Assembly (NCBI GenBank): GCA_027036135.1
Contig: JALVSY010000007.1
Coordinates: 580,880 to 644,879, forward strand
Direction: 5' to 3'
Length of the DNA stretch: 64,000 nt
Source of the DNA: Pyrodictiaceae archaeon
GTDB taxonomy: Archaea > Thermoproteota > Thermoprotei_A > Sulfolobales > Pyrodictiaceae
Positions 46,138 through 50,771 of this stretch are shown piece by piece. The first letter of the stretch is position 1. Every line of letters begins with the position of its first letter. The notes under the pieces were generated by a model, which saw nothing but the letters and a program-made list of their open reading frames with translations, ran no database searches and was not told the DNA's origin. The translations under genes and the position numbers were made by a program.

Positions 46138-46613
46138 AGCCACGGGGACCCGTCCTCGGTGTTGGCGCACTCGTGGTACGCGGTAGCGGGGAAAACCTAG
46201 AGATCCTCCTAGTGAGGCGCCGTTACCCGCCATTCGAGGGCATGTGGAGCATACCCGGCGGGCATGTTGAGCCCGGGGAGCCGCTGCTAGAGGCTGCTAG
46301 GAGAGAGCTAAGGGAGGAGACAGGCATCGAGGCGGAGCCAAAGGGGATAATCCATGTACATGAGCTAGTGGCGGAGGGGCATAATGGCCTCACTCACTAC
46401 GTTCTAGTAGATGTACTAATGGAGTACAATGGGGGCGAGCCACGCGCAGCAAGTGACGCGGCCGAGGCACGCTTCGTTCCTTATCAGGAGGCTCTTGGCC
46501 TAGAACTTACTCCTAGTGCTAGACAGTTCCTCGAGAACCTGCCCAGCATATTAAAGAAAAAGTGCTTACTAAAACCAATGAGGTACGAGGAGAGCCTAGG
46601 GCCTTACTCCTAG
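46134..46613 (+). CDS. NUDIX hydrolase
   Basis: PGGHVEPGE....AARRELREETG. Confidence 0.92.
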   Translation: MKPRGPVLGVGALVVRGSGENLEILLVRRRYPPFEGMWSIPGGHVEPGEPLLEAARRELREETGIEAEPKGIIHVHELVAEGHNGLTHYVLVDVLMEYNGGEPRAASDAAEARFVPYQEALGLELTPSARQFLENLPSILKKKCLLKPMRYEESLGPYS

Positions 46614-49568
46614 TGCTAGCTCGTTACCCTCTACCTTCCACTTCTTGGCGCCCTCGGGAACGGTGTCAACAAGTCTTAGTTCCCGAACCCTTACTTCTCT
46701 CTTTATGAACTCAGCGTGCTTCTCAACAGCCTCTCTCAAGTCGCCAGTAGCGTAGACTAGTAGCTTAGCCGCCACGTGGTCTACTGGGAGGTCTAGCTCC
46801 TTTCTCAACACCTGTGCTCTCCTAACTACTTCTCTTGCTAGGCCCTCTAGCAGGGTCTCCCGGTCAAGCTCCATGTCAACGAGTATCTTCATGTCGTCGG
46901 TCTCCACGACTAGTGCCTTACTAGCCCACTCGGGCTCCTTGCTTAGCACCTCCACGTTCTTTATGTTAGCGAACCTTGCTAGCACGTGGCTAGCCTCATT
47001 AATTGTTTCCACTAGCTCGTTGTTCTTGGCGATTATCGCTGCTCTCCTTAGGGGCCATCTCCTCTTAAGCCTCTTCTCGCTACGAGCTGCTAGCACCTTC
47101 TCAGCGGCCTCCAGGAACTCCTCTACAACCCTATGGGTCTTCTCGTCTAAGAGATCGCTGGGAACCACGGGCCATGGCTGGAGATGAACCGTCTCTGGCT
47201 CCTCGGGCTCGTACTTCTTCACGAATGCCTGGTAGAGGTACTCCGTTATGAACGGGGTAACCGGGGCCATCATGGCTAGGGTGTTCTTGAGCACGTAGTA
47301 GAGCGTGGCGTATGCAGCGTCCTTGCTCTTGGTCATCTCTTCTTCCCAGACCCTTGGCCTTATCAATGGTATGTAGCGGTGGCTTACCTGCTCTACCACG
47401 AAGTCAACTATTGCTTGGACTGCTTGGTGCATGTTATCGCTCTCTATAGCGTCGCTAACGGTTCTCAGGGCCTCGTGGAGCCGGTAGATTATCCACTTAT
47501 CCTCTGGTGCTAGTGCCGTGCTGCTTGGCGGCTTGGGTCTCCACTTGTCTAGCTCCATGTAGGTGTCTGCGAACTTCACGGTGTTCCATAGTATGTTGAG
47601 GTAGCCCTGGTACCTCTTCACCTCGTCTGGGTCAAAGTTGATGCTATCCCAGGGCGCGCGGCTCATAAGGAATATCCTCATTGGGTCGGCTCCGTTCTTC
47701 TCCATCCACTCGAGGGCCCATATGACGTTGCCCTTGCTCTTGCTCATCTTCTTCCCATACTTGTCGAGGACATGGCCCTGGAGCAGCACTTCTCGGTAGG
47801 GCTTCTCCCCGTACCAAATCGTGCTTGTAGTTAGCAGGGTGTAGAACCAGCCACGGGTCTGGTCAGCTGCCTCCGTTATCCACTTGTAGGGGAACAGCTT
47901 CTCCCATAAGTGTAGCCAGTTGTACTGGGCAAGGGAAGCAGTGTGCGCTACGCCGCTGTCCATCCATACATCGACTACGAATGGCTCCCTCTTCATTACT
48001 CCTCCGCACTTAGGGCACCGGAGCTCGACACGGTCTATGCCTGGGCGGTGTGGGTCGTTAGGGACCTTTGAGGGATCGGTGGCGAGTTTCTTTAGCTCCT
48101 CGAGGCTCCCTACAACTACTACGTGGCCACAGCTAGTGCACTTCCACACGGGTAGCGGGGTGCCCCAGTACCTTTCCCTGCTAATACACCAGTCCTTGGC
48201 GTTCTCTACCCAGTCTCCCATCCTCTTAGCAGCCCAGCTAGGAGCCCACCTCATCGAGTAGACGTGTTTGCTCATCTCCCTGCGTATCTCGTCGCTTATC
48301 CTTATGAACCATTGGCGGGAGGCGTAGTAGAAGAGCCTTGTGCCACAGCGCCAGCAGAACGGGTACTCGTGGCGATAAGTACCAGCATGCACCAGTAGCC
48401 CCTTGGAGCGCAGCACCTCTATTACCTTGTCGTTGGCCTTCTCGAACCAGAGGCCCTTGAACACGCCTGCCTCGTCGCTGAAGTAGCCGTCCTCGCGTAG
48501 CGGGGTATAGACCTCTACACCCGTTTTCTGTGCTAGCTCGAAGTCCTCGGGGCCGTGAGCCGGTGCTGCGTGGACTATCCCAGTACCCTCCTCCATTGTG
48601 ACCCATTCAGCCGCGTAGACTGTGTGGTAGGGCTTCTCGTCGTGTCCTTGGTGGTACGGCACCTCCTCTAGCAATGGGTGCCTGTAACGGAGCCCCTCCA
48701 GCTCCCGGCCCCTAATCTTCTCAACGACACTGTATTTCTCGAGACCGACGTCCTTGGCGAAGGCTTCTAGCCTCTTCTCAGCCACTATCCACTTCTCGCC
48801 ACCAACATCTATGACCATGTAGTCCTCGTCTGGATGGACAGCAGCCATCTCATTAGCTATTATTGTCCACGGCGTAGTAGTCCACGCCACGAGGTACGTG
48901 CCTGGCTTATCCAGCAGGGGTAGCTTGAAGTAGACGCTCGGATCATCAACCTCCTCATAGCCCTGTGCTACCTCGTGGCTGCTAAGCGCTGTGCCGCACC
49001 GAGGACAGCGAGGCACTACGCGGCGGCCTTCGTAGAGGAGTCCTCTCTCATGAGCCCGTTTTATGAAGCTCCAAACAGTCTCTATGTAGCGTGGATGCCT
49101 CGTCTGGTAAGCGTGCTCGTAGTCTAGCCAGAGCCCCAGCCTCTTACTGGCCTTCTCCCAGTGCTCTATGTAGTAGTCGACGAGCTTCTTACACTCCTCT
49201 ATGAAGCGCTCGACACCGTACTTCTCTATGTCCCTCTTGGTCTTGAACCCCAGCTTCTTCTCAACCTCGAGCTCTACGGGGAGACCCTGGGTATCCCAGC
49301 CAGCCTGGTCCCAGACACGGTAGCCCTTCATCCTAGCGTAGCGCAGCTTAACGTCCTTGAGGGTTCTCCCCCTTGCATGGCCTACGTGCATAAAGCCATT
49401 AGCTGTAGGAGGTCCCTCGAGGAAAGCGAATACGGGTTTATCCCTTCTCTCGTCCCAGGTCCTTTTCTTGACGAGCTCGTATACCTTGTTCTTTTCCCAG
49501 AACTCCAGAACCCAGTTCTCAACGTCTAGTGGCCTGTAGCTACGCCCAAGCCTTGGCCGCGCGAATAA
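46596..49568 (-). CDS. ileS: Isoleucyl-tRNA synthetase; no canonical in-frame start at the true 5' end
   Basis: EGPPTANGFMHVGH, WTTTPWT, WCISRERYWGTP, KMSKSKGN. The conserved N-terminus extends 59 codons upstream of the track ORF. Confidence 0.95.
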   Translation of the reverse strand, partial: LFARPRLGRSYRPLDVENWVLEFWEKNKVYELVKKRTWDERRDKPVFAFLEGPPTANGFMHVGHARGRTLKDVKLRYARMKGYRVWDQAGWDTQGLPVELEVEKKLGFKTKRDIEKYGVERFIEECKKLVDYYIEHWEKASKRLGLWLDYEHAYQTRHPRYIETVWSFIKRAHERGLLYEGRRVVPRCPRCGTALSSHEVAQGYEEVDDPSVYFKLPLLDKPGTYLVAWTTTPWTIIANEMAAVHPDEDYMVIDVGGEKWIVAEKRLEAFAKDVGLEKYSVVEKIRGRELEGLRYRHPLLEEVPYHQGHDEKPYHTVYAAEWVTMEEGTGIVHAAPAHGPEDFELAQKTGVEVYTPLREDGYFSDEAGVFKGLWFEKANDKVIEVLRSKGLLVHAGTYRHEYPFCWRCGTRLFYYASRQWFIRISDEIRREMSKHVYSMRWAPSWAAKRMGDWVENAKDWCISRERYWGTPLPVWKCTSCGHVVVVGSLEELKKLATDPSKVPNDPHRPGIDRVELRCPKCGGVMKREPFVVDVWMDSGVAHTASLAQYNWLHLWEKLFPYKWITEAADQTRGWFYTLLTTSTIWYGEKPYREVLLQGHVLDKYGKKMSKSKGNVIWALEWMEKNGADPMRIFLMSRAPWDSINFDPDEVKRYQGYLNILWNTVKFADTYMELDKWRPKPPSSTALAPEDKWIIYRLHEALRTVSDAIESDNMHQAVQAIVDFVVEQVSHRYIPLIRPRVWEEEMTKSKDAAYATLYYVLKNTLAMMAPVTPFITEYLYQAFVKKYEPEEPETVHLQPWPVVPSDLLDEKTHRVVEEFLEAAEKVLAARSEKRLKRRWPLRRAAIIAKNNELVETINEASHVLARFANIKNVEVLSKEPEWASKALVVETDDMKILVDMELDRETLLEGLAREVVRRAQVLRKELDLPVDHVAAKLLVYATGDLREAVEKHAEFIKREVRVRELRLVDTVPEGAKKWKVEGNELALGVRP

Positions 49569-49646
49569 TAGTCATCACCGAGGACTAGGCAAGAGCCTGG
49601 GTCTCTATTAAAGCTTTAACTATTGCAGAAGGCTGTGCAGGGAAGC

Positions 49647-50771
49647 CTAGAGCTTGGAGTGTATTACGTAGCGGAAGATATGGTAACGAGCCAGCCCACC
49701 CTCAGGGCTTGTGGGGTAAAACCTTGCTTCAACAACACCGCGTACATTGCTGACAACTAGTCTCTCTATCTCCTCGAGGACATGCTTATTCATGGATACA
49801 TCAACGAAACTCTGTACATAGAAATAGATTGGCGCTGGCTCTACAGGCTCTACTGGCGTCTCTATACGTGACGACCAGAGGTCGCCACGCCTTGCTAGAG
49901 CTAATGCCTCTCCCATTATGTGTGCACGTGACCTCCTATTAACAAATATGACCCAGGCACCCTCCAGCAACCTAATCGCTTCTCGTTCATCTTTGCAGAA
50001 CTTCTTTGAAGTGAGAAGCTTCTCCATGTGATCGCTTAGATTATTCCATGCAGGCTCTATGCCCTGCATAGAGGCCTTTAGGCCTACACTTGAGGCCTCG
50101 TAGCGACCAGTGCATATCGCATCAACATCCTCGTATAGCAAGTGCTTGTGCAATGTTCCGGAGGGATTGAATATGGTGAGCCTCTTTGCAGCAATGCTTA
50201 TCTCGCCGCTAGCAGCGCTGTTGAGTAGGGCGTCAGCGACTTTCTTGCCAATACCCATATCCTCTAGCTTATCCACGTACACTTTCCACTCATATATCTG
50301 GGAGGAGAGATGCCACTGCCTAATAAGATCCTCTAGTATCTCCTCTACCTCGTTCTTCTTCAGCTTGTTCACCTTAGCTAGTATCTTTACCGCTCTCTTT
50401 ACCTCCTTCTTATTATTGGGGTCGAACCTTACAGCTTGTAAGCACTTCTCGCATAGCGGTATAAACTTGTCGAAGATAGCTATGCCCCGTTCACGGGTAA
50501 CGACGTAGTCCCAGTACTCAGTTACATCTTTGACCTTCTTCCCACAGACCTCGCATCCACTTTTATACAGAGACTCTATATGTTTCCGCAGCTTCTCTAT
50601 CTCTTCGTTAGCGGTATTCTCATCTACTCCTGTGATACTGGCTGCAAGGAGGTAATCGAAGTACATAATATTAGCTAGCAATACGCCCCGCTCTATCAGG
50701 GGCTTGGGCACCAGTACTGGGCATAGTCTTCTCATTACTTCGCAGATACCAGCCCTCACTACTATCTTCAC
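49647..50771 (-). CDS. Hypothetical protein with degenerate HNH-like zinc module
   Basis: CEVCG...EYWDY...LCEKC; C-terminal GAWVIFV. Confidence 0.6.
   Translation of the reverse strand: MKIVVRAGICEVMRRLCPVLVPKPLIERGVLLANIMYFDYLLAASITGVDENTANEEIEKLRKHIESLYKSGCEVCGKKVKDVTEYWDYVVTRERGIAIFDKFIPLCEKCLQAVRFDPNNKKEVKRAVKILAKVNKLKKNEVEEILEDLIRQWHLSSQIYEWKVYVDKLEDMGIGKKVADALLNSAASGEISIAAKRLTIFNPSGTLHKHLLYEDVDAICTGRYEASSVGLKASMQGIEPAWNNLSDHMEKLLTSKKFCKDEREAIRLLEGAWVIFVNRRSRAHIMGEALALARRGDLWSSRIETPVEPVEPAPIYFYVQSFVDVSMNKHVLEEIERLVVSNVRGVVEARFYPTSPEGGLARYHIFRYVIHSKL

Follow-up and report, generated by a model that had tools for sequence, protein, structure and literature searches.

The isoleucyl-tRNA synthetase gene (ileS) of a Pyrodictiaceae archaeon, present on a stretch of 64,000 nucleotides (nt; hereafter the window) from contig JALVSY010000007.1 of assembly GCA_027036135.1, is open and homologous to IleRS far upstream of its first ATG, GTG or TTG codon. 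Its first codons are overlapped by a short open reading frame (ORF) in the -1 frame that carries two tandem Ile codons. In relatives with this arrangement, the two Ile codons are always in the -1 frame and TTA is in the ileS frame. Ribosomes may start in the -1 frame and shift by +1 at AUU-AUY when Ile-tRNA is scarce, which would make this site an autoregulatory sensor, and we give this reading an even chance of being correct. Where the ribosomes start, that they shift, and that Ile-tRNA exerts the control are what we infer from the sequence.

The 5' end of ileS

The following features were located in the window:

46596..49571, minus strand: isoleucyl-tRNA synthetase (ileS) frame, 991 codons plus stop, with the stop codon at 46596-46598
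49572..49577, minus strand: tandem in-frame stop codons TGA TGA that shut the ileS frame upstream, read from the sequence
49389..49391, minus strand: ATG, the first in-frame ATG/GTG/TTG of ileS (codon 61, the M of FMHVGH)
49540..49575, minus strand: -1-frame mini-ORF ATG ACT ATT ATT CGC ... TAG (MTIIRAAKAWA*), 11 codons, with its ATG at 49575-49573 and its TAG at 49542-49540
49564..49569, minus strand: box ATT ATT, the two -1-frame Ile codons, proposed from conservation as sensor and shift site
49566..49568, minus strand: in-frame TTA, the first conserved ileS-frame codon and the expected position of a start codon, 6 nt after GGTGA
49574..49579, minus strand: Shine-Dalgarno (SD)-like GGTGAT, with its GTG (49578-49576) in the -1 frame; GGTGA is 49579-49575
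49605..49612, minus strand: TATA-like box TTTAATAG, read from the sequence

After TGA TGA, the ileS frame reads CTA TTA TTC GCG CGG CCA AGG and onward. The NCBIfam ileS profile TIGR00392 matched the first 350 residues of the open frame with an E value of 1.3e-111, and its position 10 was aligned to residue 16, 45 codons ahead of the first canonical start. Since the profile aligns from residue 16, a start at ATG 49391 would delete part of the catalytic fold; this ATG lies after essential catalytic residues and is not a plausible start of ileS. The GGTGA overlaps the ATG of the mini-ORF at 49575 and, as this ATG is in the -1 frame, a +1 shift would be required to enter ileS from it. An earlier note on this stretch had described the start-less frame, the tandem stop codons and the out-of-frame M-T-I-I mini-ORF, and all three were confirmed in the sequence; the overall layout recurs in relatives. 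The genome (2.2 Mb, 40 contigs, 99.6% complete) carries a single ileS, the remaining matches being Val/LeuRS of about 31% identity, and it encodes tRNA-Ile(GAU).

The absence of a start codon might reflect an indel introduced by sequencing or assembly, decay to a pseudogene, or a shortened enzyme begun at ATG 49391. Apart from that absence nothing favoured such an origin, which we consider barely credible. Logan contigs from four runs in three studies, covering 49350-49750, contained no inserted or missing letters (two of the four runs are flagged as possible sources of the assembly, the other two are not). Among the runs listed as containing the stretch, none was an RNA run. The sole difference was a single letter, at an unlisted position, in one contig of run X5. 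In runs X4 and X5 the contigs end and overlap near 49545-49576, around the box, with identical sequence, which may reflect nearby strain variation. The frame is intact across 991 codons in the only ileS of the genome, the same layout recurs in five closed or near-closed family genomes of 1-2 contigs each (G004, G006, G012, G015 and G019), and a truncated enzyme from 49391 would lose the strand and PPTANG segment before HVGH, both covered by the ileS profile. The earlier note had allowed for an assembly error, either TTG to TTA or an indel, and had pointed to reads and orthologs as a check. The contigs of independent runs and the conservation across the family refute such an error; the runs contained no indel, and among the orthologs TTG takes the place of TTA only in the lineage of L022 and L069.

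By eye, relatives have a TATA-like element whose first base is in most cases 41-47 nt ahead of the ATTATY box (the extremes being 40 and 49 nt), irrespective of whether 5 or 6 nt separate the SD from the box. The element is about 30 nt before GGTG, and the ileS mRNA is therefore predicted to begin a few nt upstream of GGUG. An Rfam scan of 49300-49800 at E values up to 10 gave only two chance-level matches to small nucleolar RNA and microRNA families, and the RNA fold of 49500-49585 was no better than those of shuffled sequences (z +1.04; 170 of 200 shuffles folded at least as well).

Three structural candidates were considered and dropped. A hairpin or inverted repeat GAUGA-UUAUC, drawn by eye, is lost in the Ignisphaera relatives with the 6-nt spacer and would not be strong enough at the growth temperatures of a hyperthermophile; frequent GGUGGU variants break any resemblance of UGAUAA to the anticodon loop of tRNA-Ile; and for a T-box-like resemblance (GGGUGGUA) there is no leader able to hold a T-box.

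The spacing between GGTGA and an in-frame ATG, GTG or TTG peaks genome-wide at 6-7 nt (61 and 50 cases; the out-of-frame control gave 12 and 1 cases at 6 and 7 nt, and 1-25 across spacings 0-20). Within the window, seven GGTGA-led canonical starts of ORFs of at least 100 amino acids have spacings of 5-8 nt. Behind the GGTGA of ileS, UUA is at 6 nt, AUU is at 5 nt, and AUG overlaps the SD.

Conservation of the box and the point of the proposed frame change

The survey comprised 41 related genomes, 29 family genomes, 80 species-representative loci, for which the nearest record titles were Pyrodictiaceae, and 80 metagenome loci. The ileS 5' ends were anchored on the conserved Trp of the N-terminal helix, resulting in 148 distinct ends. 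In 56 of these, GGTG[AGT] is followed after 5-6 nt by A-TTA-T[CT] with TTA in the ileS frame, and all 56 belong to IleRS of the window's type (64-100% identical to the window IleRS). The GGTG[AGT], the A before TTA and the T[CT]N after it are present in 56/56 ends, a figure that was built into the search pattern. The box itself is ATTATC in 49 and ATTATT in 7 of the 56, and in every one ATT-ATY encodes Ile-Ile in the -1 frame and TTA is in the ileS frame.

The spacer was 6 nt in 28 of the box-bearing ends and 5 nt in the other 28. In the 6-nt class, the whole region from the upstream in-frame stop to the conserved Tyr is devoid of canonical in-frame starts in 18/28 ends; such a start was found only downstream of the box in 9/28 and upstream of it in 1/28. 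All 28 have an ATG, GTG or TTG in the -1 frame, which in 19 is an ATG no more than 6 codons from the box. In the 5-nt class the GTG of GGTG is in the ileS frame in 28/28 ends. No end of at least 62% identity had a variant in-frame box behind GGTGN except for ATTGTC in L022 and L069, in which TTG replaces TTA and the second Ile codon is thereby lost. The box-less relatives L070 and L074 carry GTG at the position of TTA with equal SD spacing, and ordinary ATG, GTG or TTG starts of ileS were found outside the clade (Ignicoccus and Thor-, Bathy-, Nezha- and Nitrososphaerota relatives).

On the IleRS tree (a quick IQ-TREE run with 61 rows) the 6-nt class formed two clades, one with all Pyrodictiaceae rows (Shimodaira-Hasegawa-like approximate likelihood ratio test, SH-aLRT, 98) and the other an Ignisphaera-related subclade (97), the latter being sister (SH-aLRT 100) to the TTG lineage of L022 and L069. 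In a FastTree run with added metagenome rows, L131 and L139 fell in the Ignisphaera 6-nt subclade. On these trees the 6-nt layout arose twice, in Pyrodictiaceae and again in the Ignisphaera subclade, and the state without a canonical start has persisted across family-level divergence. A spacer that puts the GTG of the SD into the third frame was found in 0/56 ends, a count without statistical weight as there are only two spacer changes on the tree.

Two further observations were made on the ileS genes of these groups. In some Ignisphaera ileS (L063, L130 and L132) a second in-frame ATTATC or GTTATC is present about 12 nt past the first box. A second IleRS type was found in four Pyrodictiaceae genera (L028-L034, with matches in G009, G016 and G020); it is longer (open frames of 1062-1089 codons where complete), 41-50% identical, and has a DGPPY motif. 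Its starts are mostly ordinary ATG or GTG, and none was evident near the N-terminus of L028.

Three observations indicate reading in the ileS frame from the box onward. The ileS frame of the window is closed by TGA TGA up to the codon preceding TTA; in L066, L131 and L139 the -1 frame meets TGA straight after ATT ATC; and the linker from the box to the conserved L-K-G-R-Y varies by whole codons only, with 17-20 codons from TTA to Trp. If translation begins in the -1 frame, the change of frame would therefore be confined to X-AUU-AUY. A bulge-helix-bulge mRNA intron and transcriptional slippage were rejected, as the frame would have to change within some 9 nt that include no homopolymer, and linker lengths differ only in multiples of three; no search for the bulge-helix-bulge motif was made.

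The composition of the box was compared with codon usage. In the genome, TTA accounts for 8.7% of Leu codons, ATT and ATC together for 35% of Ile codons and AUA for 65%. The only variation within the box, ATC or ATT, is synonymous (Ile) in the -1 frame and exchanges Ser for Phe in the ileS frame. AUA, the commonest Ile codon, is absent from all boxes; as the first codon of the pair it would also place a UAA in the ileS frame. UUA was never changed to UUG in 56/56 ends, and the single TTG lineage lacks the second Ile codon. As UUA is not improved to UUG except where the second Ile codon is lost, its A seems to be selected for a role other than initiation. Taken together, this favours the view that AUU-AUY is under selection as a pair of Ile codons decoded by tRNA-Ile(GAU). 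A genome scan for GGTGRT-N3-6-ATTATY gave three loose matches, one of which was ileS.

These data suggest how an Ile-gauged switch might work. The mRNA presents GGUGAU, then GUG, AUG and the near-cognate AUU, which are start-like and all belong to the -1 frame, then AUU-AUY; the ileS frame itself lacks a start codon. Initiation would occur in the -1 frame, at AUG or GUG in Pyrodictiaceae and possibly at the near-cognate AUU everywhere. When Ile-tRNA(GAU) is plentiful, the Ile codons would be decoded and translation would stop 2-12 codons later, leaving a useless peptide. When it is scarce, the A site would stay empty and the weakly held P-site tRNA could slip by +1 from AUU to UUA, the register favoured by the spacing of the SD pairing; UCC or UUC would then be read and IleRS made. 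Such a circuit would resemble prfB in its negative feedback, except that a sense codon would serve as the gauge. Where AUU is immediately followed by an Ile codon, the productive-frame codon can only be UUA, and this would account for the unusual TTA at the expected start position.

A +1 shift at hungry Ile codons had been proposed in the earlier note, together with an alignment of ileS 5' ends from related genomes. That alignment bore out the conservation of the out-of-frame start and of Ile-Ile, and narrowed any change of frame to X-AUU-AUY. The proposed shift gained from this conservation and from the purely synonymous variation of the second Ile codon, but no slippery P-site codon was conserved.

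Overlapping start-like codons in other synthetase genes

Among genome ORFs of at least 250 codons, 179 of 1135 have a late first canonical start, and the 40 longest of these were searched against NCBIfam. Homology upstream of the first canonical start was found only in LeuRS, IleRS, ValRS, GluRS, a FlaI-like ATPase (a less clear case) and a truncated acyl-CoA-ligase-like ORF. MetRS, ArgRS and two TyrRS/TrpRS-family genes have ordinary ATG starts. GGTG[AGT] followed after 6 nt by a non-canonical codon that heads an ORF of at least 200 codons, with no canonical start nearby, occurs 16 times genome-wide, and the three longest of these ORFs are leuS (ATT), ileS (TTA) and valS (TCG). The loci of this genome that bear on the comparison are:

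G000:C7:401955 onward (L197:256-560), plus strand: leuS, no in-frame ATG/GTG/TTG until codon 87, after HLGH
G000:C7:923349 onward (L198:230-400), plus strand: valS, no canonical in-frame start until codon 45
G000:C7:357240-357332 (L299:640-733), minus strand: cysS, box ATT GTG T, with TTG TGT in the +1 frame
G000:C16:178160-178248 (L300:1060-1149), minus strand: gltX, GluRS profile aligned from 15 residues before the first canonical start
G000:C7:1098682-1099731 (L278), minus strand: acyl-CoA-ligase-like ORF, homology from profile position ~42, at the upstream stop
G000:C7:188370-189419 (L287), minus strand: FlaI-like ATPase, profile from open-frame residue 46, first ATG/GTG/TTG at codon 89

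The leuS of this genome has an in-frame ATT 6 nt behind GGGTGG and reads TTA TTG CTT (Leu-Leu-Leu) in the +1 frame, and an upstream ATGA junction places an ATG in its -1 frame. In valS an in-frame TAG (TAA in a congener) stands just before CCT TCG TCC, and the -1 frame reads GTG TTA GCC TTC GTC. The cysS has an ATG overlapping an in-frame TGA. In gltX an in-frame ATA is present 6 nt behind AGGTGG, and no Glu codon was found in the neighbouring frames. The N-terminus of the acyl-CoA-ligase-like ORF seems to be missing or in another frame.

Boxes in cysS, leuS and valS were counted in distinct 5' ends from the 41 related genomes. In cysS, [AT]TTGTG with GTG in frame is present in 22/29 ends; the +1 frame reads UUG followed by UGY (Cys) in all 22, and the residue encoded in frame next to GTG is variable (F, S, Q, L, Y or W). 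In leuS, ATTG with ATT in frame is present in 17/30 ends, after three spurious regular-expression matches had been dropped and the real box of L222 added by eye. A Leu codon follows the +1-frame UUG in 17/17 (CTT in 10, TTG in 6 and CTA in 1). A canonical in-frame start was lacking behind 8/17 genuine leuS boxes (the pattern used for start absence gave 18 matches, including spurious ones in L217 and L218, and missed L224). In valS, ATTG with TTG in frame is present in 8/29 ends, and the -1-frame AUU is followed by a Val codon (GUN) in 6/8, the exceptions being GGC and GAG. A valS variant, C-TTC-GTC-C (Phe-Val in the -1 frame), was found in 12/29 ends; in the window's genus it has an in-frame TAG or TAA just upstream and no canonical start, and 6/29 valS ends lack one.

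In all four genes, some 6 nt separate the SD from the productive-frame codon, and the neighbouring frame has a codon for the enzyme's own amino acid in second position. The rough chance of all four being cognate is ~2e-4, by post hoc arithmetic with two registers allowed per gene and genomes that are not independent. We propose tentatively, at somewhat under an even chance, that a start-frame toggle controls at least four class-I synthetase genes (ileS, valS, leuS and cysS) in Pyrodictiaceae and related Desulfurococcales. Two start-like codons overlapping by one base (AUUG, or AUUA in ileS) would be placed behind one SD, the initiator tRNA would fit either, and the frame would be fixed by whichever second-codon aminoacyl-tRNA arrived first. 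As the second codon of the non-productive frame encodes the enzyme's own amino acid, abundant cognate tRNA would divert ribosomes to the dead-end frame.

A simpler reading is that the SD positions the 30S subunit so that UUA, 6 nt downstream, starts translation with Met-tRNAi, with no frame change or sensing, the -1-frame ATG and the mini-ORF being by-products of the SD sequence. This is the main rival of the Ile-gauged switch, and we regard it as the less likely of the two. UUA does lie at the genome's optimal SD spacing, and leuS (ATT), gltX (ATA) and valS (TCG) of the same genome hold non-canonical codons at equal spacing. Box-less relatives carry GTG at that position and one lineage carries TTG, and the SD-to-box spacer has changed by 1 nt twice, which is easy if the spacer is untranslated. 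However, only one position of UUA pairs with the initiator anticodon, and we know of no natural precedent for initiation on UUA. Plain initiation also leaves unexplained the invariant A before UUA and the U-Y after it, why the better UUG never replaces UUA (56/56), and the cognate codon in the neighbouring frame of four synthetase genes. The suggestion in the earlier note that TTA is the initiation codon was right in its geometry, with TTA at the optimal spacing and TTG in one lineage, but it meets two anticodon mismatches and does not account for the flanks. It and the hungry-codon shift are probably two sides of one mechanism, and can be merged as an initiator-tRNA toggle between AUU and UUA.

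Conservation at the nucleotide level, which extends to the 28/28 ends of the 5-nt class where GTG is in frame, might also indicate an operator. The box would then bind a trans-acting factor (a protein, IleRS or a tRNA) at the mRNA 5' end, or the DNA around the transcription start, and entry into the frame would be a separate matter. The boxes of ileS, valS, leuS and cysS are alike (AUU[GA][UC]), and inspection by eye suggests a short inverted repeat (GAUAA..UUAUC) in part of the lineages. We consider an operator improbable: the repeat, again by eye, is lost in the Ignisphaera 6-nt class, the 5' region folds no better than shuffles and has no Rfam match, GGUGGU variants break the mimicry of the tRNA-Ile anticodon, the half-site spacing differs by 1 nt between the spacer classes, and the differences between the boxes of different genes are exactly the cognate codons.

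The Ile-gauged frame switch has its own difficulties, and the following observations weigh against it. The codon before AUU varies (ACU, UCU, CCC, ACC, UCC, AAC, GGU, AGU and others), and after a move from AUU to UUA, tRNA-Ile and the initiator alike would pair at only one of the three positions, so that the site is not slippery by the classical criterion. In the 5-nt class, the GUG of the SD is in the ileS frame in 28/28 ends with the box equally conserved, and any -1-frame ATG, GTG or TTG is nearby in just 11/28; this class would be compatible with a sensor only if AUU itself starts the decoy frame, as it possibly does. The optimal SD spacing of UUA, shared by AUU in leuS and AUA in gltX, makes position-driven initiation a live alternative. 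GGTGATG serves as an ordinary SD elsewhere in the window, so that the conserved ATG could be partly a by-product. The cross-gene cognate-codon statistic is post hoc and drawn from related genomes. Finally, an essential enzyme would hinge on an inefficient event.

Comparison with known systems

Leaders resembling the proposed sensor were found upstream of ileS in Thorarchaeota. There, 26 distinct leaders (L092-L114 and L172-L196, about 110-170 nt upstream of ileS) have an SD followed by ATG GAT TGY CAA AT[TC] (M-D-C-Q-I), usually one more codon, and a stop. From the Ile codon, the +1 frame is stop-free for 36-42 codons in 25/26 and ends on a TGA overlapping the ATG or TTG of ileS, and the zero frame has 1-6 stops. 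The +1 frame also includes the GTG of the SD in about 10/26 leaders, so that a comparable ambiguity arises there. The mini-ORFs of Nitrososphaerota (M-Y-R-Q-I-stop) and Bathyarchaeia (M-S-R-Q-I-H-stop) have a +1 frame that does not reach ileS. Like the window, the Thorarchaeota loci combine an IleRS of this type (55-59% identical) with an SD, an Ile codon in a very short ORF, and a +1 frame leading to ileS. They differ in that the leader lies 110-125 nt upstream and its +1 frame ends on the ileS start, as in translational coupling, whereas the +1 frame in Pyrodictiaceae is that of ileS.

Next to nothing is known, as far as we are aware, of the way in which archaea adjust synthetase levels to tRNA charging, and we know of no T-boxes or classical attenuators in them. 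Our full-text literature searches found no archaeal synthetase gene described under frameshift, leader-ORF or overlapping-start control. The relevant passages of PMC5556600 give only ATG/GTG/TTG start statistics for Pyrodictium delaneyi, and those of PMC7373986 mention only the thrS operator of E. coli. The frameshifting passages of the 2021 review PMC8211752 list a single proven case in an archaeal cellular gene (-1, in fucA1) and, as predictions only, +1 events in a virus and in magnesium chelatase. Gene callers restricted to ATG, GTG and TTG must truncate genes of the present kind: ileS would be shorter by 60 residues, among them a part of the catalytic fold, with the same effect on leuS and valS. 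If the proposed switch is real, archaeal cellular genes would gain their first programmed frameshift of the +1 type, testable in cultures of Pyrodictium or Hyperthermus.

Leader-peptide attenuation (ilv, leu, his, trp and pheST) and ileS T-boxes resemble the proposed switch in that charged or uncharged cognate tRNA sets expression, with ileS among the classic targets; in attenuation, too, the sensor consists of tandem cognate codons in a very short ORF. Translational ileS T-boxes are described for Actinobacteria in the section of PMC1262725 concerned. The present ileS differs in having no leader RNA, alternative hairpins or T-box; its sensor ORF would overlap the first codons of the synthetase, and the output would be a choice of frame. 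For attenuation, the TATA-like box about 30 nt before GGTG leaves no leader and the fold has a z of +1.04; for a T-box, neither stem I, nor a specifier loop, nor the T-box sequence was detected in the Rfam scan of 49300-49800. Taken with the Asgard leaders, and if the switch operates as proposed, frame choice at hungry cognate codons would be a widespread archaeal counterpart of bacterial attenuation and T-boxes.

The AUU start of infC, encoding initiation factor 3, is a weak non-AUG codon behind an SD that is used for autoregulation. The in-frame AUU and AUA at equal spacing in leuS and gltX of this genome are similar to it. In ileS, by contrast, the near-cognate codon AUU lies in another frame, and UUA, the in-frame codon, is not near-cognate, having two mismatches to AUG at its 6-nt spacing; the only in-frame codon with one mismatch, AGG, comes 21 nt behind GGTGA and lacks conservation.

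The proposed step is akin to hungry-codon frameshifting in E. coli starved of amino acids, where scarce aminoacyl-tRNA leaves the A site empty and the P-site tRNA can move by one base. In E. coli this is known as an error or laboratory phenomenon, whereas in ileS it would be the normal route to an essential enzyme. Of productive hungry-codon frameshifting, the passage in PMC5009743, a major review, states that 'no examples are known'; if the reading given here is right, ileS would be the first natural case of its use as a designed route to a protein.

Another close parallel is the autoregulatory +1 frameshift of bacterial prfB, which encodes release factor 2. Both have a short zero-frame ORF and a functional protein in the +1 frame without a start of its own, and in both a slow A-site codon would report the activity of the gene's own product, control by decoding speed being our proposal in the case of ileS. 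In the part of PMC5009743 that treats prfB-type sites, the stimulator is an SD-like element about 3 nt upstream of the shift site. Between the GGUGRU of ileS and the first Ile codon there are 3 nt in the 5-nt class and 4 nt in the 6-nt class, and the same element could simply serve initiation. The two differ in the gauge, which is a stop codon behind a conserved slippery CUU_U in prfB and a sense Ile codon without a conserved slippery P-site codon in ileS; the ileS site is moreover at codons 2-4 or at the start codon itself, and the host is an archaeon. As no slippery P-site codon is conserved, ileS was not classed as a member of the prfB type, although it would work like one.

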